Virus genome (UHGV): UHGV-0068444
Source of the DNA: a virus
Length of the DNA: 39,624 nt
Strand: one strand, 5' to 3'
Shown here piece by piece: positions 13,407 through 23,214 of this stretch (the first letter of the stretch is position 1; the number at the start of each line of letters is the position of its first letter). A program made the position numbers and the translations under genes. The notes under the pieces are model-generated. The model made no database searches. It was not told the DNA's origin and was given only the letters and a program-made list of their open reading frames with translations.

Positions 13407-13427
13407 GTGTATGGAGCGCAAAGAAGC

Positions 13428-14117
13428 ATGAATCAACAAGACCTGAATTTTGTAAGAATAGAATTGCGCCGCGCGCTACCTGACCTCTCTGGGGGAACAA
13501 AAGGGCAGCTTGAGGCTTTCAGTGAACACCCACCAGCAGACAAAAATGCCACCCCGCGCCGTGGAATTCATCTCGTCGAACTCGAAGGAGAGAAGGGGCC
13601 TCGCTTTGTTAACTCGCTTTCCGCGCCATTGTATGTATTGGAAACACGCAGCCGCTGCAGGCCAATGCCGCCGATAAAAGATGCGGAATTTGAGTCCGCG
13701 CCGTGGCGTAGGGCAGTGTCCGCGCTTAGTGGATACCAGCAGGCCTGGTTGCGGTACTGCTACGGTTTTGACCTTAGCTATAAGCACCAGGTGATGATGT
13801 GTGAATACGTCTGGAAAACTTATCAGAAATGTCTGGGTGATAATTCCCTTCAGGAGCGCGTAGTAAAGAAACTGATTGGCCTGGTATGGCTGGCAGGGCA
13901 GGAAATTGCCGCAACCAGAAATAATGAAACCTATAAAGACTATGCTGGTGCAGCGTTGGCCCGCATGGTTAGCGTTGATCGTTCGACATGGTTGCGTGTC
14001 TATTCAGGGCACTGGGCTGGGTTAAAGGCCGCTTTTACCCAGCTTGATGAATCTGCGTTGGCAATGGCTCTTGAATACTATGAGGAAGAAGAAGCCCTCA
14101 AAGTGGCAGAAATGTAA
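13428..14117 (+). CDS. Late-gene antitermination protein, Q-like
   Basis: Start MNQQDLNF (alternative GTG at 13407); position between nin-like genes and a tR'-type terminator; family assignment by context and recollection. Confidence 0.55.
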   Translation: MNQQDLNFVRIELRRALPDLSGGTKGQLEAFSEHPPADKNATPRRGIHLVELEGEKGPRFVNSLSAPLYVLETRSRCRPMPPIKDAEFESAPWRRAVSALSGYQQAWLRYCYGFDLSYKHQVMMCEYVWKTYQKCLGDNSLQERVVKKLIGLVWLAGQEIAATRNNETYKDYAGAALARMVSVDRSTWLRVYSGHWAGLKAAFTQLDESALAMALEYYEEEEALKVAEM

Positions 14118-14212
14118 AGTAAATTTCACTATCTCCTTCAAACGCGCTTGCAAAATGCAACAAAATAAGCCATATTTAAAGCGTATTTGATATGTTGCCA
14201 AAGTTTTATAAA
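14118..14212 (+). promoter_or_regulatory. Presumed late promoter (PR') and Q-utilisation region
   Basis: Inferred from position between the Q-like gene and the tR'-like terminator; candidate -35 TTGCAA and -10 TATTTA hexamers; exact site not determined. Confidence 0.35.
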
Positions 14213-14233
14213 CCCGCCAATGAGCGGGTTTTT
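14213..14233 (+). terminator. tR'-like intrinsic terminator
   Basis: cccgc-caatga-gcggg hairpin followed by TTTTT, about 100 nt downstream of the Q-like stop. Confidence 0.7.
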
Positions 14234-14280
14234 GCGTTATAATTCACCGATTTAAACCAATTGTTTTAAATAGGTGAAGT

Positions 14281-15132
14281 ATGAAAATAGATAATCCCGA
14301 AAATCCACTTGAACGAAACGATTTTTCGATGGATGACTTCCATCACTACTTAAGGGAGTTTGATAAAGCTGTATGTGAAGCGAATGCTGTAAGTCAGGGG
14401 GTTGGTGTGCGAATGGCTGAGGCTTTTAAAGGGTGGTCTACATACATTTTTTCACGAATCTGCATTCATGCTTCAATAATGATTTCCAACGTACCAAAAT
14501 CAAGATGGGCTAAGCGGGATTATGACTTTTGGGATTTTTCGGCGATTGCACCTCATGTAAGAGCGATTCTGGAAGCTGAGTTATTGTTTATGTATTTATC
14601 TGAGAATCCAGATTCAACTGAGGAGTGGTCAGCAAAGTTGAATGTCATGCACATGAATGATTGTGTAAAGAGAATTGAGTTATTTACATCTAGTGATAAT
14701 ACGAAAGCATTGGATTTTTATCATGAACAAAAAGATATAATAACTGAGAGACTTAATAACAACCCTGTTTTTTTATCCCTTGAACAAGGAACCAGAAAAC
14801 GTTGCTTGACTGGAAAAGCGCTTATGATTCCAAATCGAGATGAGTTATTGGTTAAACTGGGAAAAGATCCAAAGTCATTTAAAATAATGTTCGATTTTTT
14901 ATCTCATTATACGCATATACTACCTATGTCATATTATAAAATGGAGCCAAACGGAAGAGGAACTGGTTGTTTTAACAACTATGACTTTGGCTATATGATT
15001 ATGGGGATGATTATTTGTACTGAATCCTTGACTAAGTGTACAGATAGATTAGTAGAACTTTTTCCTGATGTTAGACGGTTGCGAAAAGGAACTAAATCAA
15101 AATTCACGTTAGGTCCTAAACCTACAAAATAA
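14281..15132 (+). CDS. AT-rich hypothetical protein (283 aa), cargo gene; function unknown
   Basis: ATG after AGGTGAAG RBS; visibly lower GC than flanking phage genes; no hydrophobic segments; no motif recognised. Confidence 0.6.
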   Translation: MKIDNPENPLERNDFSMDDFHHYLREFDKAVCEANAVSQGVGVRMAEAFKGWSTYIFSRICIHASIMISNVPKSRWAKRDYDFWDFSAIAPHVRAILEAELLFMYLSENPDSTEEWSAKLNVMHMNDCVKRIELFTSSDNTKALDFYHEQKDIITERLNNNPVFLSLEQGTRKRCLTGKALMIPNRDELLVKLGKDPKSFKIMFDFLSHYTHILPMSYYKMEPNGRGTGCFNNYDFGYMIMGMIICTESLTKCTDRLVELFPDVRRLRKGTKSKFTLGPKPTK

Positions 15133-15162
15133 CAATGAGTCGCTTGCTGCTATTTTAAAGGC

Positions 15163-15185
15163 TTCCAAATGGAAGTCTTTTATAA
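15163..15185 (+). terminator. Weak hairpin terminator after the 14281-15132 gene
   Basis: cttcc-aaat-ggaag stem-loop followed by tcttttat. Confidence 0.35.
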
Positions 15186-15350
15186 TTTCAGGTTTCGCAA
15201 ATTATACTTATCTTCACATTTTCATAATAGCGCATAAGCCAGCCCCCCCTCCATCAACCACAGCGCCATACGAACTATCGGAGGTGAGGCTAAATTAGTA
15301 ATCGTTCTTACCTGCACAGGTGCATAAAAATCAGCCTAAAATGCGAGTTT

Positions 15351-16013
15351 TTATGAAGAGAGCAGCATGACTTTTTCTTTTGCGGGCGAAGGTGACTGCT
15401 CTTTCAAAGGGAAAATTATAAATGCTATAAATGCAGTAAATAATACTATGAAAGCTAGCACTGTAACTTTCCTTGAAGATGATAGGGCTTTGTTATATTC
15501 CTTGGCTATTTTGTTCGTTATATGGATCTTAGTGCTATTTATTTCATCTTTTAGTATGGATAATTTATTTATAAATTCCTGTGTTTCTTCTCGAGAGTAA
15601 AGTTCTGAAGCATCTCTTGGGGTTTCATGTGGATGCCGAGTATAACCAAGTATTTGTGGTATTAAATTACCATGCGATTGAACTACAGATTCATATTTCT
15701 TATAGCAAGCATTATCAAAAAATCTCATTCTTATGCTAAGTTCTCTGAGTTTGTCAACGTCTAGAGAAACTTGTTCGTTGGCAATAATTAAATCTCCGCG
15801 GTTTAATGTATTCTTGTGTTGAAAAATTAGTAAAAGCCATTCTGTATTATTGTAAAGCTTTTCAAGATTGGCATGTATATCAAGTCCGAGTTTTTCATAT
15901 GCGGATAATTTGACCTCTTTTTCCTTTGCAGAAAGAGAAGATGAATAAGCCAGTAATCCGCTTATTATGGCAACAATAAATGTTCCTATAATGGTTAAGG
16001 TATTCGAGTCCAT
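15351..16013 (-). CDS. AT-rich hypothetical membrane protein (one N-terminal and one C-terminal TM helix), cargo gene
   Basis: Start MDSNTLTIIGTFIVAIISGLL (ORF extends to 16070); C-terminal VLAFIVLFTAFIAFIIF hydrophobic helix; convergent with the 14281 gene. Confidence 0.55.
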   Translation of the reverse strand: MDSNTLTIIGTFIVAIISGLLAYSSSLSAKEKEVKLSAYEKLGLDIHANLEKLYNNTEWLLLIFQHKNTLNRGDLIIANEQVSLDVDKLRELSIRMRFFDNACYKKYESVVQSHGNLIPQILGYTRHPHETPRDASELYSREETQEFINKLSILKDEINSTKIHITNKIAKEYNKALSSSRKVTVLAFIVLFTAFIAFIIFPLKEQSPSPAKEKVMLLSS

Positions 16014-16120
16014 TGTATTCTTCAAAAGTTGGTCAAAAATATATTGTAATATTTTAATGTATAAAATCAATCATTTCCCCTCATTCTGAGAGGACTCCCA
16101 GCAACAAAGAGGGGGGCTAA

Positions 16121-16507
16121 ATGTCCGATCCGATTTCCGGTTCTGGGATGGCTGGTGGTGTCCTGACGGGGGCCAGCGTCTATGGATTTCTGTCCGGAAC
16201 CGATTACGGCGTGGTGTTTGGCGCATTTGCCGGGGCTGTATTTTACATTGCAACCGCAGCGGATCTAAGTGCAGCGCGCCGACTGGCATATTTTCTGGTG
16301 TCGTATATTGCGGGGATCCTTTGTTCCGGGCTGGTGGGTTCAAAGCTGGCTCAGGCTACCGGCTACAGTGATAAACCACTGGATGCCATTGGCGCCGTAA
16401 TCGTTTCTGCTTTAGCCGTCAAAATCCTGACATTCCTGAATAATCAGGATGTCGGCTCGCTGGTGGCGCTGATAACGCGCCGGGGAGGTTCAGGTGGTAC
16501 AAAATGA
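16121..16507 (+). CDS. Putative holin (three predicted TM segments)
   Basis: 128 aa, Gly/Ala-rich hydrophobic segments; first gene of the lysis cassette upstream of endolysin. Confidence 0.55.
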   Translation: MSDPISGSGMAGGVLTGASVYGFLSGTDYGVVFGAFAGAVFYIATAADLSAARRLAYFLVSYIAGILCSGLVGSKLAQATGYSDKPLDAIGAVIVSALAVKILTFLNNQDVGSLVALITRRGGSGGTK

Positions 16508-16775
16508 CCCATCGGCAACTTTTAATGCATTGCTTTGTGCTGGGGTAGTGTTAACCCTGATGTTTTACCGTCGCGGCGACTCGCGACATCGACCGTGGAT
16601 ATCTCGCTTAGCGTGGCTGCTTACGGTCATCTACAGCGCCGTTCCGCTGGCGTATCTGTGCGGTATTTACCCGTACTCATCATGGGCCACTATCGGGGCC
16701 AACTTTATTTTCCTGTCCGTGCTGGTCGCCGTAAGAGGCAACGTGGCACGTCTGGTTGATCATCTGAGGCACTAA
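16494..16775 (+). CDS. Second small membrane lysis protein (holin or antiholin-like)
   Basis: 93 aa, three hydrophobic segments; overlaps the upstream gene; stop overlaps the endolysin start. Confidence 0.45.
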   Translation: MVQNDPSATFNALLCAGVVLTLMFYRRGDSRHRPWISRLAWLLTVIYSAVPLAYLCGIYPYSSWATIGANFIFLSVLVAVRGNVARLVDHLRH

Positions 16776-17389
16776 TGAACCAATCACAATTTCAGCAGGC
16801 GGCTGGTATCAGCGCCGGGCTTTCTGCGCGCTGGTTTCCGCACATTGACGCGGCAATGAAAGAGTTTGGCATTACAGCTACGAACGATCTGGCTATGTTC
16901 ATCGCCCAGGTTGGGCATGAGTCTGCTGGCTTTACCTCGCTGGTGGAAAGCTTCAACTACTCGGTAGAGGGGCTGAAGAAAACCTTTGGTAAACGGCTTA
17001 CTCCTTATCAGTGTGAAATGCTGGGTCGTGTCGATGGTAAGCAGGTGGCCCACCAGCCGCAAATAGCCAATCTGGTTTATGGTGACCGCATGGGGAATAA
17101 CAGCCAGGGTGACGGCTGGAAATATCGCGGTCGCGGCCTGCTGCAAATCACGGGTCGTGAGAACTACACCAAATGCGGCACGGCGCTGAAACTTGACCTT
17201 ATCAGTACGCCAGAATTGCTAACGCAAGAGCGACATGCGGCTCGTTCGGCTGCGTGGTACTTCACGTTACGCGGTTGCCTGATGTATTCGGGTGACGTGG
17301 CACGCGTTACGCAGATTATTAACGGCGGACAGAACGGCATTAAAGACCGCCGTGAACGTTACGCCAAAGCTAAAGCTGCACTGGTGTGA
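16775..17389 (+). CDS. Endolysin, glycoside hydrolase family 19 (chitinase-like lysozyme)
   Basis: 204 aa; AQVGHESAGF...YRGRGLLQITGRENY resembles the GH19 catalytic core. Confidence 0.8.
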   Translation: MNQSQFQQAAGISAGLSARWFPHIDAAMKEFGITATNDLAMFIAQVGHESAGFTSLVESFNYSVEGLKKTFGKRLTPYQCEMLGRVDGKQVAHQPQIANLVYGDRMGNNSQGDGWKYRGRGLLQITGRENYTKCGTALKLDLISTPELLTQERHAARSAAWYFTLRGCLMYSGDVARVTQIINGGQNGIKDRRERYAKAKAALV

Positions 17390-17396
17390 GGTCAGT

Positions 17397-17666
17397 ATGG
17401 GGCTTGAAATGATTATCGGCCTGGTTGTTGCTGTGCTGGCTGCAATTGCAGGTGCTTTTGGGCTGGGCAAATCACGCGGTACCAGTATCGCTGAAACAAA
17501 AGCGGACCAACAACGCACTGAAGAACGTGCAATAGCTATTGAAGCGGTTGCAGAACGCCGGGTAGAAACAACAAAAGGAGCCAGGGATGTACAACAGACT
17601 GTTAACCATATGCCTGATGACGCTGCTGATCGCGAGCTGCGCAAAAACTGGACACGTAAGGATTGA
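17397..17666 (+). CDS. Inner-membrane spanin (Rz-like)
   Basis: Start MGLEMIIGLVVAVLAAIAGAFGL (N-terminal TM) after GAGG RBS; charged coiled-coil-like remainder; directly after endolysin. Confidence 0.6.
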   Translation: MGLEMIIGLVVAVLAAIAGAFGLGKSRGTSIAETKADQQRTEERAIAIEAVAERRVETTKGARDVQQTVNHMPDDAADRELRKNWTRKD

Positions 17667-17808
17667 GGTTATTGACACCGGCTGCGATTGGGTAAAACCC
17701 ATCTACGGCACTGCTCATGATTGGGAAGTGCTGGACAGGCAGACCAAGAAAGACATTCTTATGCATAACAAAGTGTGGATGTCAAACTGTGGCTCTATAA
17801 CTTATTGA
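17587..17808 (+). CDS. Outer-membrane lipoprotein spanin (Rz1-like), overlapping Rz out of frame
   Basis: MYNRLLTICLMTLLIASC has a lipobox (LIASC); starts inside the Rz-like ORF in another frame. Confidence 0.6.
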   Translation: MYNRLLTICLMTLLIASCAKTGHVRIEVIDTGCDWVKPIYGTAHDWEVLDRQTKKDILMHNKVWMSNCGSITY

Positions 17809-18459
17809 TTTTGTTTTTTTGTTGTCTACCATATCAGGCAATGTGAAGGCATATAGAAGAAATACTTCGGTGAAACCAATCATTTCTTGAGCATCTTCTT
17901 TTGAAAATTCTTCATCAGAATGAACTGCTCCATTGGAATCGATTCGAACTATATGTGCCCATTCCCTCATTTGATCTGTAATCAGTCCCTTAGCATGCAA
18001 CATAGAAATCCGTTTAACCAATTTTTCATCTTTTGAGTCATTTCCCAGTAACTCCCGTGTAGCAATGTCCAAGACTTTACGGCAAAGCATAACGGATGTG
18101 TCGAAACGACAGCGCCCTAAGTTGTCTTTTGCTTCTATGAAAGCCATAGCAGCACGTGGCGGAGTGTGTTCGGGGGCGTTAAGGAGGGTGGGTTTCGGGA
18201 TGATATCAATCAACTGGTACTCAGTATTTCCAGGAATGATTACGTTTACATCATTATTTTGCCTAGATTTTGCACGAGGTAAATAACCACCGGGATTATT
18301 CATTTTTACAATAGCAATACCTGATTGAAAACAGCTTCGACAACAAAATGCAATATTAACTAAAGGCCCGGCGTTGATACGCAGTTCTGCCCATCCTTCA
18401 AGGACAGCATTTTCCCTCAGACAATGTGGGCAAGTGATATCGAAAGTGAGAATTCGCAT
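17782..18459 (-). CDS. Hypothetical protein with N-terminal zinc-ribbon (CPHC...CCRSC) and C-terminal helical domain; reverse-strand cargo gene
   Basis: Start MRILTFDITCPHCL after GGAG RBS (ORF extends to 18504); moderately AT-rich; C-terminal region loosely reminiscent of DUF4145-type domains (unverified). Confidence 0.55.
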   Translation of the reverse strand: MRILTFDITCPHCLRENAVLEGWAELRINAGPLVNIAFCCRSCFQSGIAIVKMNNPGGYLPRAKSRQNNDVNVIIPGNTEYQLIDIIPKPTLLNAPEHTPPRAAMAFIEAKDNLGRCRFDTSVMLCRKVLDIATRELLGNDSKDEKLVKRISMLHAKGLITDQMREWAHIVRIDSNGAVHSDEEFSKEDAQEMIGFTEVFLLYAFTLPDMVDNKKTKSISYRATV

Positions 18460-19140
18460 GACTCTACTCCATACATTAAAAGAAATTGAAAATGAATTAC
18501 ACAATGCACAACGACCTGAGTCTACACTCCTTCAACGATATGAAGTATCGAATGAGATTAAAAAAAAGGAGTTTGTAGTCGCTTTGATCGGTAAACTGAT
18601 AGAATTGGACCGCCGTCTCTATGTCACATCATTGAAGCCTTAGTTTCAATTTTACCGATTTATCGCTTAAGGGGTAGGACTTCAACACTACTAAGTGAGC
18701 ATTGCAGCAGGCATTCAGGGGAATGCTGTGACAGTAGTTAGCTAGGGTAAACCGTTTGCGCCTGGGGATTTTACTTTGCGACGGAAAATTAAAAAACTAT
18801 ATGATTTCTTATCCCACTAGGATGTCTGCGGACTACTACTGACTGTTTAGGCTATTACGAGGGGCTCAAACTCAACGTCTGGCATCAACGCAGAACTGAA
18901 AAAGTCGCCATGAATGTGGTTACGGTATTTGGTGGGATATAAACGTACCTTCATTTCTAAGCTTGATAATCACCTTTGTCCGAATTGCCTACGCGATAGT
19001 CATGTAGTTTTAGTCATAACCGTTTACCCTATTGATGTCAAGATAAATTGGATAACACTGATGAATCGAACCTCTAAATCCTTTGATGGGCCACTCATAG
19101 CTGACTGGTTCAAAAAAGTGTTATCAATGGTATGATAAGT

Positions 19141-19476: not shown

Positions 19477-19854
19477 ATGGCTACGGAAGATATTCAGGCT
19501 TTGTTATCTAAAGTTAATGCGTTAAGATTTGAAGATAAAAGAATAGAGAAGGAAACAGGAGAGATTGAAAATGAAATTCAGGCTCAATTTCTTCGTGATG
19601 GTAAAACAAGGAGTACATTAACCATAACATTTATGAGAGGCTTTTTTGGTCTTATCGTTTTTTCTTTTATATTTGTGATAGCTTATAACTATTGCGCAGT
19701 GCAATGGGTACTTCAATTACAAAGCAAAGGGCTCATGGAGGCTTCTAAAAGTATCGCACTACTTGAGTTAGATAAGGTGTTATCTATTATGGTTAGTGCG
19801 TTAGGAACATCTCTTGGGTTTATAATTGGCTATTATTTTAAAGACAAAAAATAA
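19477..19854 (+). CDS. Hypothetical membrane protein (125 aa): charged helical N-terminus plus two C-terminal TM helices
   Basis: FFGLIVFSFIFVIAYNY and VLSIMVSALGTSLGFIIGYYF hydrophobic segments; followed by a strong terminator. Confidence 0.55.
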   Translation: MATEDIQALLSKVNALRFEDKRIEKETGEIENEIQAQFLRDGKTRSTLTITFMRGFFGLIVFSFIFVIAYNYCAVQWVLQLQSKGLMEASKSIALLELDKVLSIMVSALGTSLGFIIGYYFKDKK

Positions 19855-19958: not shown

Positions 19959-20360
19959 TAAAATCCGCGGATTAATGACGGCAATCATGAATACTCCTCC
20001 AAAGACTGATCCAACGATACGGGTGTATAAGTCACACTTGTTTAATCTGTGATTGATGGCACTATAATTTATGTTGCACAACATAAACTGCCGATGGAGG
20101 GAATTGAGTGCTGAGCATGTCAGACATAAGTGTGTTGTCGAAGGTCTCCTCAGGCATGGTTTCTGCATAACGTCGACACTTGAAAGCCTCCATAATGACA
20201 ATAAAGTATAAGTATTATCATTATTAATTGTCACTTGCCGTTGCGACATGCTTGGGCGGCGACCGCCTAAGTTCTCTTTATAAATGAGAAGTTCCCGCTA
20301 GCGACCGTTTCTGATTCTTTTTTTCTACTAAGTTTGTATCAAATAAACAGGATAATGCCG

Positions 20361-20723
20361 ATGCCAGCACGAGCAAAGCGTCCATGCCGGCACAAGGGCT
20401 GTGCGGCAGTTACCAACGATGCCAGTGGCTATTGTGATCAACACCGACAGCGGCATGCTGGTGATGGCTGGCGTAACTATCAGGCAGGAAAGAGCAGGCA
20501 GGAACGTGGATATGGGCGGACCTGGGAAATTAAACGGGTGCGTATCCTTCAGCGTGATAAGTACCTGTGTCAGAACCATCGCCGGCAGAAGATTGCAAAA
20601 AAGGCGACCAGCGTTGACCACATCATTCCAAAAGCTCATGGCGGTACTGATGACGATTTCAATCTTGAGTCGTTGTGCTGGGACTGCCACAGAGCGAAGA
20701 CGGCAAGAGAGCGTATCCGATGA
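20361..20723 (+). CDS. HNH endonuclease (terminase-associated type)
   Basis: Start MPARAKRPCRHKGC (ORF extends to 20334); Cys pairs CRHKGC...CDQH and C-terminal HIIPKAHGGTDDDFNLESLCWDCH motif; sits just upstream of terminase small subunit. Confidence 0.8.
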   Translation: MPARAKRPCRHKGCAAVTNDASGYCDQHRQRHAGDGWRNYQAGKSRQERGYGRTWEIKRVRILQRDKYLCQNHRRQKIAKKATSVDHIIPKAHGGTDDDFNLESLCWDCHRAKTARERIR

Positions 20724-21058
20724 GTTAGACCCATTGCACATATTTTGGTTCACGGCTCTATACAATAGCTAACTGCCCAAAATAATGGGGTGGTTCATCG
20801 CGCCGCGCCAACCTGCACTGCAGCTATTGTGGGCAGTCAGGGCATAACTCTAGTGCCTGTCCACATAATGAGAGCTGCGGTCGTCGGCGCAGCCTGAATG
20901 ATGACTTCCATCTTGATTGATGCCCACACAGGCCAGGGGAAGGGGGGATCAAATCCCTGACCCCTTTCGCCTTCCAGGACTGCCGCCTGAAGGACATTTT
21001 TATACGCAAGAAATAAGGATCTTTTTTCCGGTAGGTTTTAACTATTAATAGAGGTGTT

Positions 21059-21493
21059 ATGGCTGGTGGAATTCGATCATCAGGCGGAGGGCGAAAGCCC
21101 GTTTTACCTTCAGGACAAAAAAGCAAACTGACCAGAATCGCACCTCCCGCTGAGTTAATGGGGGAGAATGCAATAAGACTGTGGAAAACCCAAAGTAAAA
21201 TTCTGATCGAAAGAGGCGTGTTTGAACTGGAGGATGCGCCCCTGCTTCTGGCTTACTGCAATGCCTTCCATTTAATGCTTGAAGCTGAAAAATTGCTCTC
21301 GTCAAGCCTGACGACCGAAAGTGAAATGGGGGGATTAAAGAAACATCCCGCCGTTAACATCAGAAATGATTCTGTTTCCCAGATAGCCCGTCTTGGCTCG
21401 CTTCTGGGGTTGGATCCACTCAGCCGAATTAGGATGCGTGGCAGTGGAAATGATCCGGACGACGACGGGAATGAATTTGATGAGTTTGACTGA
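21059..21493 (+). CDS. Terminase small subunit (P27-like family)
   Basis: 144 aa; position immediately upstream of and overlapping the large-subunit start; acidic C-terminus. Confidence 0.65.
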   Translation: MAGGIRSSGGGRKPVLPSGQKSKLTRIAPPAELMGENAIRLWKTQSKILIERGVFELEDAPLLLAYCNAFHLMLEAEKLLSSSLTTESEMGGLKKHPAVNIRNDSVSQIARLGSLLGLDPLSRIRMRGSGNDPDDDGNEFDEFD

Positions 21494-23214
21494 TGGCTAC
21501 ATATCCGAACGTCAATGCAGCGAACCAGTATGCAAGAGATGTTGTTGGCGGGAAGATCCTTGCTTGTCAGTTAACTGTGCTTGCCTGTCAAAGACACCTT
21601 GATGATTTGGAACGTGCGAAGGATCCTGCCTGGCCTTACCGGTTTGATAAAAACAAGGCCGAGCGATTTTTGCGCTTTGCTCAGAAGATGCCTCATACGG
21701 CCGGTGAATGGGCCAGGAAGAAACTACGAATAGAATTTGAGCCCTGGCAAAAGTTTGCCCTTGGTGTGCCATTTGGATGGGTTAATAAGAAGTCCGGATT
21801 CCGGCGTTTTTCTGAAATATATATTGAGGTGCCCAGGAAAAATGGGAAATCCGCAATTGCAGCTGCCGTTGGTAATTATATGTTTTGCGCCGATGGTGAA
21901 CATGGTGCAGAAGTGTACTGTGGCGCCACTACTGAAAAACAAGCCTGGAAAGTCTTCTCTCCCGCTCTACAAATGGTAAAAAAACTCCCGGCATTGCGAC
22001 AAAAATACTCAGTCAAACCCTGGGCGAAGAAAATGACCCGTCCGGATGGCTCTGTTTTTGCGCCAGTCATCGGCGATCCTGGTGACGGCGATTCCCCTTC
22101 ATGTGCAATTATTGATGAATATCACGAGCATCAGACTGATGCACTTTATACAACGATGACTACCGGGATGGGGGCAAGGGAGCAGCCTGTTACTCTGATT
22201 ATTACTACAGCGGGTTATGACATTACTTCGCCCTGTTACGAGAAGCGTGTGCAGATAGTGGAAATTCTCCGCCGTAACCGGACAGGAGAAGAAAACGAGA
22301 CAATATTTGGCATTATATACGGTCTGGATGACGATGATGACTGGACCAGGCCCGAAGCGCTGATTAAAGCAAATCCCAACTTTGGTGTTTCTGTTAAAGA
22401 GCATTTTCTTCGGGCGAAGCAGTTACTGGGAATATCCAATCCCAGCCAGACTAACAAAATTCTGACCAAGCACTTTAACCGGTGGGTAAGTGCAAAAACG
22501 GTTTTTTATGACCTGCAAAGATGGATGGCTGCTGCGGATAAAAACCTTAAATTATCTGATTTTGTTGATGAGGATTGCTGGCTGGGTATTGATCTGGCCT
22601 CGAAAGTAGACCTGAATGCCGTAGTGCCAGTGTTCAGGAGAGAGGTTGCTGGTATAACCCATTTTTACTGTGTGGGGCCGCTGTTCTGGGCGCCTGAAGA
22701 TACAATTTATTCACCAGATCCCACGCTGAAAACCATTTCTGAACGTTACCAGTCATTTGTGAAACAGGGGGTATTGATACCTACTGAAGGGGCTGAGGTG
22801 GATTATCGGTTAATTTTTGAGTCAATTCTTCAGTTACGCCAGCAGGTTAAAATTGTCCAGTGCCCGATAGATCCTTACGGGGCAACATCATTGCGCCATC
22901 TGCTTGAAGAGGAGGGGCTGGAATCCGTTGAGATCAGGCAAAATTTTACACATATGAGTGATCCAATGCGTGAAATTGAGGCGGCGCTGGCATCAGGACG
23001 CTTTCATCATGACGGTAACCCTATCATGAACTGGTGCATCCAGAATGTTATAGGGCGTTACTTACCAGGAAGCGATGACATTGTTCGCCCAGGGAAGGAG
23101 AGAAAGCAAAACAAAATAGATGGCGCGGTAGGACTAATGATGGGAGTCGGGCGAGCCATGCTGAACGGAACTGTCAGTAAATCGGCTTATGATGAGGAAG
23201 ATATTACATGTTGA
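21493..23214 (+). CDS. Terminase large subunit
   Basis: 573 aa; ATPase-like N-terminal region and nuclease-like C-terminal region (WLGIDLASKVDLNAVV); follows the small subunit, precedes portal. Confidence 0.9.
   Translation: MATYPNVNAANQYARDVVGGKILACQLTVLACQRHLDDLERAKDPAWPYRFDKNKAERFLRFAQKMPHTAGEWARKKLRIEFEPWQKFALGVPFGWVNKKSGFRRFSEIYIEVPRKNGKSAIAAAVGNYMFCADGEHGAEVYCGATTEKQAWKVFSPALQMVKKLPALRQKYSVKPWAKKMTRPDGSVFAPVIGDPGDGDSPSCAIIDEYHEHQTDALYTTMTTGMGAREQPVTLIITTAGYDITSPCYEKRVQIVEILRRNRTGEENETIFGIIYGLDDDDDWTRPEALIKANPNFGVSVKEHFLRAKQLLGISNPSQTNKILTKHFNRWVSAKTVFYDLQRWMAAADKNLKLSDFVDEDCWLGIDLASKVDLNAVVPVFRREVAGITHFYCVGPLFWAPEDTIYSPDPTLKTISERYQSFVKQGVLIPTEGAEVDYRLIFESILQLRQQVKIVQCPIDPYGATSLRHLLEEEGLESVEIRQNFTHMSDPMREIEAALASGRFHHDGNPIMNWCIQNVIGRYLPGSDDIVRPGKERKQNKIDGAVGLMMGVGRAMLNGTVSKSAYDEEDITC

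Follow-up and report, generated by a model that had tools for sequence, protein, structure and literature searches.

A probable five-gene lysis cassette with paired holin-family genes in the lambda-like prophage UHGV-0068444

Described lysis cassettes of the same or of a similar type

Lysis cassettes including paired small membrane proteins are already known and have been annotated as holin/holin in many phages, among them mEp390, phiP27 and phiCTX. In mEp390, HK639 and related prophages of Escherichia coli, Citrobacter, Salmonella and Klebsiella (e.g., Citrobacter phage Chris1), the cassette encodes, in this order, a PF16931 holin, a PF05449 holin, an endolysin of glycoside hydrolase family 19 (GH19), an inner-membrane spanin (i-spanin) of about 90 amino acids (aa) and an overlapped outer-membrane spanin (o-spanin); the annotation of mEp390 accordingly reads holin, holin, endolysin and two Rz-like spanins. 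The virus genome UHGV-0068444, analysed here as a whole stretch of 39,624 nucleotides (nt) called the window, carries the same families in the same order on the plus strand at positions 16121-17808. We consider with high confidence that this segment is an intact and ordinary five-gene lysis cassette of a lambda-like prophage, located in a late operon of the Q-antiterminator type. Its first two genes, named hol1 and hol2, belong to a module that was found linked in four phage lineages.

The mEp390 proteins are 48-73% identical to those of the window, and only sequence divergence and the flanking cargo, with AT-rich genes on both sides in the window, distinguish the window from the mEp390/HK639 group. 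The spanins of this group were classed as an overlapped family by Kongari et al. 2018 (PMC6139136). DNA similar to the cassette is present in 263 of 5,426 complete E. coli genomes (about 5%), and the exact window proteins are named "phage holin family protein" and "glycoside hydrolase family 19 protein" in NCBI records from E. coli and other Enterobacteriaceae.

The same two membrane families, in the same order and directly upstream of the endolysin, are also found in the P2-like phages KS5, KL3, KS14, AP3, RSA1 and phiCTX from Burkholderia, Ralstonia and Pseudomonas. Their proteins share 20-40% identity with those of the window, but their endolysin associates PG_binding_1 with a PF11860 muramidase instead of being a GH19 enzyme, and their LysB/LysC-type spanins, which are also overlapped, belong to other families. 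In phiCTX, orf9 and orf10 are the members of PF16931 and PF05449, respectively. A genome scan with orf9 gave nothing, and a protein search returned, among the 120 matches listed, only copies from phiCTX-like prophages of P. aeruginosa. A tested pyocin holin of Pseudomonas, Hol (PA0614), presumably resembles orf9, a tentative link that is not used here.

Two classical systems follow the same logic with other proteins. The P2 genes Y/K/lysA/lysB/lysC encode a 93-aa holin with three transmembrane domains (TMDs), a separate timing protein with four TMDs and a soluble endolysin, and their spanins overlap like those of the window, the o-spanin gene beginning within the i-spanin gene, in its +1 frame, and ending past it. 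However, K separates Y from lysA in P2, and the endolysin is not a GH19 enzyme. No homology was detected by BLASTP or by profile comparison with hhalign between Y and hol2, LysA and hol1, or LysC and the window o-spanin. In the same way, the lambda genes S107/S105, R, Rz and Rz1 support the same three-step lysis pathway and occupy the same place downstream of Q. In lambda, a single gene with a dual start provides the antiholin, whereas the window has two genes and no conserved dual start; the R protein of lambda is a transglycosylase, whereas the window endolysin is of the GH19 type; and the Rz1 gene of lambda is fully embedded in Rz, whereas the spanin genes of the window are overlapped. Neither lambda S nor Rz shows sequence similarity to the window proteins by BLASTP or hhalign. 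The window cassette is thus analogous, and not homologous, to the lysis genes of P2 and lambda.

Some resemblances are limited to part of the cassette. The SPN1S/epsilon15 endolysin (PDB 4OK7; LysSA05) matches that of the window over its full length, and epsilon15-like phages such as Tyrion have the same PF16931-PF05449 pair upstream of the endolysin, but the epsilon15/SPN1S group has embedded spanins, of the Bcep176 family. The gp62/gp63 proteins of N4 were rejected as a model: they are a pinholin and its regulator, with one or two TMDs, they act with a signal-anchor-release (SAR) endolysin and they are different proteins. Hol41, the holin of a Jersey-like phage, and HolAP of Acidovorax phage AP1 were also set aside as members of unrelated families.

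The five genes and their products

Both the listing of open reading frames (ORFs) and direct reading of the sequence show that five co-directional genes fill positions 16121-17808 exactly. All five products match lysis families of Pfam or PHROGs well above threshold; no NCBIfam model matches any of them. Besides the cassette, the prophage includes a repressor region and genes for an integrase, a Q-like antiterminator, an HNH protein, the small (TerS) and large (TerL) terminase subunits, and the head and tail. Since the Q-like antiterminator (13407-14117; PHROG 304) lies upstream of the cassette and the HNH, TerS and TerL genes lie downstream, from 20334, the cassette is in the usual late-operon position.

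The gene hol1 (16121-16507, +) begins with an ATG preceded by the Shine-Dalgarno sequence GAGGGGGG and encodes a 128-aa protein that matches PF16931 (Phage_holin_8; 5.6e-34; 117.3 bits for a cut-off of 26.4) along the whole profile (positions 1-121 of 121), as well as PHROG 198 (E = 4.8e-41). Its hydropathy profile displays four Gly/Ala-rich hydrophobic helices followed by a short basic C-terminal tail, with a predicted N-in/C-in topology. An AlphaFold2 model, whose confidence is low (predicted local distance difference test, pLDDT, of 62.7), places helices at residues 8-25, 29-45, 51-80, 86-107 and 112-119. A dual start at Met1/Met10 was considered and rejected: Met10 is replaced by Leu in all eight relatives compared, and hol1 therefore has no dual-start motif.

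The second gene, hol2 (16494-16775, +), overlaps hol1 by 14 nt and starts with a GTG located 5 nt downstream of a GGAGG. Its 93-aa product matches PF05449 (Phage_holin_3_7, formerly DUF754; 1.1e-19; 70.7 bits for a cut-off of 25.4; profile positions 2-79 of 80) and PHROG 217 (E = 3.4e-31). It has three hydrophobic segments taken as TMDs, a basic loop (RRGDSRHR), a basic C-terminus and a conserved RGNV motif after the third TMD. Because of the basic loop and the basic C-terminus, the protein is predicted to adopt the N-out/C-in topology of class I holins. The sequence-only reading had proposed two consecutive small membrane proteins ahead of the endolysin, and two multi-pass membrane proteins do stand there in succession. 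A lambda-type dual start would involve two in-frame starts a few codons apart, the longer product having one more positive charge at its N-terminus; in hol2, there is only one start, and neither Lys nor Arg occurs ahead of the first TMD. In 90%-identity clusters, the 128-aa and 93-aa proteins were reported in one cluster although they are unrelated and read in different frames, which is probably a clustering or bookkeeping artefact.

Selection and start sites were examined by comparing the window with eight related cassettes from phages and prophages of E. coli, Citrobacter, Salmonella and Klebsiella. The ratio of nonsynonymous to synonymous substitution rates (dN/dS) is 0.04-0.13 for hol1 and 0.04-0.09 for hol2, which indicates strong purifying selection on both, and it is 0.04-0.24 for the endolysin and 0.16-0.22 for the i-spanin; the cassette as a whole is thus under purifying selection. 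The start position of hol2 is kept in 9/9 sequences, as GTG in eight of them and as ATG in mEp390. The second membrane ORF, whose lack of conservation would have spoken against the proposal of two holin-like genes, is therefore a conserved gene.

The endolysin gene (16775-17389, +; 204 aa) has an ATG that overlaps the hol2 stop codon as TAATG. Its product matches PF00182 (GH19; 2.9e-08; 34.2 bits for a cut-off of 25.5), PHROG 181 (7.6e-88) and, with about 65% identity over residues 2-203, the structure of the SPN1S endolysin (PDB 4OK7; E = 7e-79). The catalytic Glu-x8-Glu pair of GH19 enzymes is present as E49 and E58 in GHESAGFTSLVE, within the conserved GHES...E motif. The protein is thus a predicted GH19 (chitinase-like) muramidase of the SPN1S type and, as had been read from the sequence, not a transglycosylase of the lambda R type. 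Hydropathy analysis reveals no hydrophobic SAR or signal segment at its N-terminus; the enzyme is therefore soluble and cytoplasmic and needs large holes to reach the cell wall.

The i-spanin gene (17397-17666, +; 89 aa) starts 7 nt after the endolysin gene with an ATG preceded by GAGG. A longer ORF beginning with a GTG at 17292 was also listed, but the homologues start at 17397. The protein matches PHROG 1026 (E = 2e-33), with no Pfam match above threshold, and according to its hydropathy it consists of a single N-terminal TMD (residues 4-24) followed by a charged periplasmic domain. In 55 relatives, its length varies from 87 to 91 aa, and 54 of these proteins have no Cys. The o-spanin gene (17587-17808, +; 73 aa) starts with an ATG preceded by AAGGAG. 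Its reading frame is +1 with respect to that of the i-spanin gene, with which it shares 80 nt and beyond whose stop it extends by 142 nt. The product, equivalent to Rz1, has no Pfam match but belongs to PHROG 1275 (E = 2e-28). It is a lipoprotein precursor whose lipobox (IAS-C) precedes the lipidated Cys18, leaving a mature part of 56 aa with two further conserved Cys, C33 and C68. An overlapped two-component spanin architecture was reportedly described by Summer in 2007, and the window spanins display all its elements, namely the TMD of the i-spanin, the lipobox of the o-spanin and an out-of-frame start inside the i-spanin gene. The earlier view that the lipoprotein gene begins within the Rz-like gene in another frame and ends past its stop is thus correct. 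The +1 frame, an overlap of 74-86 nt, the Cys18 lipobox and the two other Cys are kept in all 55 relatives (41 distinct sequences).

The sequences of these spanins are distant from those of the classical systems. BLASTP aligns the window i-spanin with lambda Rz at E = 0.12 and gives no alignment between the window o-spanin and P2 LysC, while the Pfam LysC model PF23793 matches the LysC of P2 and phiCTX and not the window o-spanin. The exact sequence of the latter was found only in one Logan contig and one entry of the nr database from a metagenome-assembled genome.

It could be imagined that the prophage is decaying and that either membrane ORF, or the lipoprotein ORF overlapping the i-spanin gene, arose by chance or has lost its function. 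AT-rich insertions flank the cassette on both sides, the tail of the o-spanin after a conserved Asn-Cys differs from that of most relatives, and annotation pipelines often mis-start or omit this gene. However, hol1, hol2 and the endolysin and i-spanin genes all have dN/dS values far below 1, the ORFs are intact and preceded by Shine-Dalgarno sequences, and 41 distinct sequences retain the o-spanin ORF with its lipobox and both Cys. A truncation of the o-spanin by the downstream AT-rich insertion, suggested by the tail GSITY where relatives have KESGRERREPK, was rejected, as all conserved features are intact. Since the tail varies naturally from 1 to 12 residues among 50 relatives, GSITY at the junction with the insertion is not a truncation. 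Decay of the cassette is therefore largely refuted and highly improbable.

Linkage and possible division of labour of hol1 and hol2

Four divergent hol2 queries allowed the collection of 248 IMG/VR loci, among which 242 have enough upstream sequence to be judged. In all 242, which belong to four phage lineages, an ORF of the hol1 family abuts hol2; an automatic screen gave 232 pairs, and inspection resolved the other ten as ORF-calling artefacts. The overlap between the two genes is 14 nt in 78/78 window-like loci and 75/80 Tyrion-like loci, and 4 nt in RSA1-like loci. Furthermore, the pair lies in the order PF16931-PF05449 directly upstream of the endolysin gene in mEp390 (lambdoid), phiP27 (an Stx2e phage), Tyrion (epsilon15-like), FSL SP-076 (N4-like), Seifer (Casjensviridae) and RSA1, AP3 and phiCTX (P2-like). 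The associated endolysins belong to five unrelated families (GH19, GH24, GH108, M15 peptidase and PF11860 muramidase). None of the nine examined has a SAR or signal segment; as all these partners are soluble, the pair must supply large holes.

The pairwise divergences of hol1 and hol2 are correlated (r = 0.71 for 36 pairs). Recombination joints with relatives do not disrupt the pair, as they are located within the 5' part of the endolysin gene or downstream of it. The cassette itself is mosaic: in SKA5, 118970_sal3 and 27 of 80 IMG/VR relatives, hol1-hol2 is joined to a different and longer Rz-type spanin (130 aa). The endolysin of these mosaic relatives is about 66% identical overall, and DNA similarity to the window stops about 145 nt into the gene.

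The cassette would follow the canonical three-step route of holin, endolysin and spanins by which phages lyse Gram-negative hosts. During late gene expression, hol1 and hol2 would build up in the inner membrane. Translation of the two is probably coupled, since the 3' end of hol1 contains both the GTG and the Shine-Dalgarno sequence of hol2. The two proteins would then trigger at a programmed time and open large non-specific holes, through which the soluble GH19 endolysin would pass and cut the peptidoglycan. The i-spanin in the inner membrane and the o-spanin, an outer-membrane lipoprotein, would form a complex across the periplasm that would disrupt the outer membrane once the wall is gone, probably by fusing it with the inner membrane.

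A holin function of hol1 and hol2 is indicated indirectly by their position upstream of the endolysin gene, their membrane topology, their linkage to soluble endolysins and existing annotation. Based on topology and position, the hole former is most likely hol2, with its three TMDs and N-out/C-in orientation, and the four-helix hol1 would be its dedicated partner, either an antiholin or timing regulator with a gene of its own or a required co-subunit. For KS5, KS14 and KL3, Lynch et al. 2010 (PMC3091744) predicted an "antiholin + DUF754 holin" for these same families. The idea of the sequence-only reading that holin and antiholin may be encoded by separate genes instead of one dual-start gene is reasonable by analogy with such systems. 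That hol1 is the antiholin and hol2 the holin is nevertheless a tentative assignment, to which we would give somewhat less than an even chance.

The roles could also be reversed, hol1 (PF16931) being the hole former and hol2 (PF05449) the regulator or antiholin. In favour of this, hol1 comes first in the operon with a stronger initiation region (ATG and a long Shine-Dalgarno sequence versus GTG), and databases call both proteins simply holin. However, hol2 has the textbook class I layout (three TMDs, N-out/C-in, basic C-terminus) and it is hol2, not hol1, that adjoins the endolysin gene; moreover, a four-TMD partner is the antiholin type in P2 (LysA), according to PMC3091744. Such a reversal thus appears improbable.

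Several points weigh against the assignment of hol1 as antiholin and hol2 as holin, or against parts of the lysis scheme. No experimental study on any PF16931 or PF05449 member was found in the paper library searched, so that the proposed division of labour is drawn from topology and precedent. The confidence of the structural model is low for hol1. With 89 aa, the i-spanin is much shorter than the 153 aa of its lambda counterpart, and the spanin roles of the last two genes are predicted from family membership. As hol1 has a stronger start than the GTG of hol2, it would, if it were an inhibitor, be made in excess. Finally, antiholins are usually dispensable and evolutionarily labile, yet the co-occurrence of hol1 and hol2 is invariant, which speaks against hol1 being merely an optional inhibitor.

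This last point leads to another reading, in which the two proteins would be an obligate two-component holin: hol1 and hol2 would co-assemble into a heteromeric hole-forming complex, neither would work alone, and there would be no antiholin in the lambda or P2 sense, timing being set by a stoichiometry fixed through coupled translation. The adjacency of the genes in every judgeable locus of the four lineages, the maintenance of the pair as a unit while the endolysin swaps among five enzyme families, the conserved overlaps of 14 nt or, in RSA1-like loci, 4 nt, the correlated divergence of the two proteins and the equally strong purifying selection acting on them are all in keeping with this, as are the Gly/Ala-rich helices of hol1, whose composition is suited to helix packing. 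However, co-occurrence does not tell an essential partner from a strongly beneficial regulator, and some class I holins with three TMDs, for example lambda S105 and P2 Y, function by themselves. Considering linkage, overlaps and constraint, a two-subunit holin fits about as well as the antiholin; it is a possible reading, to which we would give a chance below even and slightly lower than that of the antiholin. Its wider form, in which the pair is an obligate heteromeric and translationally coupled holin common to the lambdoid, P2-like, N4-like, epsilon15-like and Casjensviridae phages of beta- and gamma-proteobacteria, seems rather unlikely. The first helix of hol1, weakly hydrophobic and rich in Gly, Ala and Ser, might be a dynamic, SAR-like trigger element.

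Flanking cargo, annotation and significance

The GC content of the cassette is 0.53, whereas those of the upstream and downstream blocks are 0.35 and 0.375, and such AT-rich cargo on both flanks is unusual. The upstream block, of about 2 kb (14118-16070), lies between the Q-like antiterminator gene and hol1. It contains an ORF of 283 aa (14281-15132, +) whose match to DUF5677 is weak and below threshold (E = 2e-4), followed by a terminator-like hairpin (15157-15180), and an ORF of 239 aa on the opposite strand (15351-16070, -), which has hydrophobic segments near both ends and falls in no family of Pfam, PHROGs or PADLOC. In phiP27, this same slot between Q and the lysis genes holds stx2e, which immediately precedes the same holin pair. 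The block may be a moron or defence cargo.

The second AT-rich block separates the lysis cassette from the HNH and terminase genes. It includes a gene for a DUF4145 protein (17782-18504, -; PF13643, E = 8e-11; PHROG 1305), the 3' end of which converges on the o-spanin gene with a 27-nt overlap and which just 2 of 80 close IMG/VR relatives possess. When the flanking cargo genes were scanned with PADLOC, the only match was a weak one of this DUF4145 protein to PD-T7-4 (E = 0.002). The block also encodes a 125-aa protein of PHROG 20796 (19477-19854, +). Further downstream (20334-23214), an HNH endonuclease gene (PHROG 144) directly precedes those of the small (P27-family-like) and large terminases, an HNH-cos packaging arrangement that is the same in phiP27 and in E. 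coli relatives.

In E. coli DA33137 (L002 4233-4463) and Chris1 (L001 4747-4977), the 3' end of the o-spanin gene is overlapped by a conserved ORF of 76 aa (VNVENLSEAYYINNEIKELQRLK...). No counterpart was found in the window (best tblastn E = 1.1), where the DUF4145 cargo seems to have taken its place.

Public annotation of the overlapped o-spanin is often mis-started or missing in relatives. For example, the o-spanin of DA33137 is annotated from 'MLTVSC' (L002 4049-4255), those of Chris1 (L001 4632-4769) and mEp390 (L003 2766-2918) begin well inside the gene, and that of TH9F11 (L010) has no annotation. In the same way, an intact hol2 ORF lacks annotation in the RefSeq record of Salmonella phage 118970_sal3 (L009 1920-2201).

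As a genome feature, the cassette matters little; it tells annotators that the lysis module of this prophage is complete and apparently functional. The analysis supplies correct starts for the GTG-initiated hol2 and the overlapped o-spanin gene, often overlooked by pipelines. More broadly, the PF16931-PF05449 pair is a very widespread and fixed unit that accompanies soluble endolysins of five enzyme classes; deciding whether it is a holin with its antiholin or a two-subunit holin would overturn nothing but would close a gap among the described mechanisms of lysis timing.

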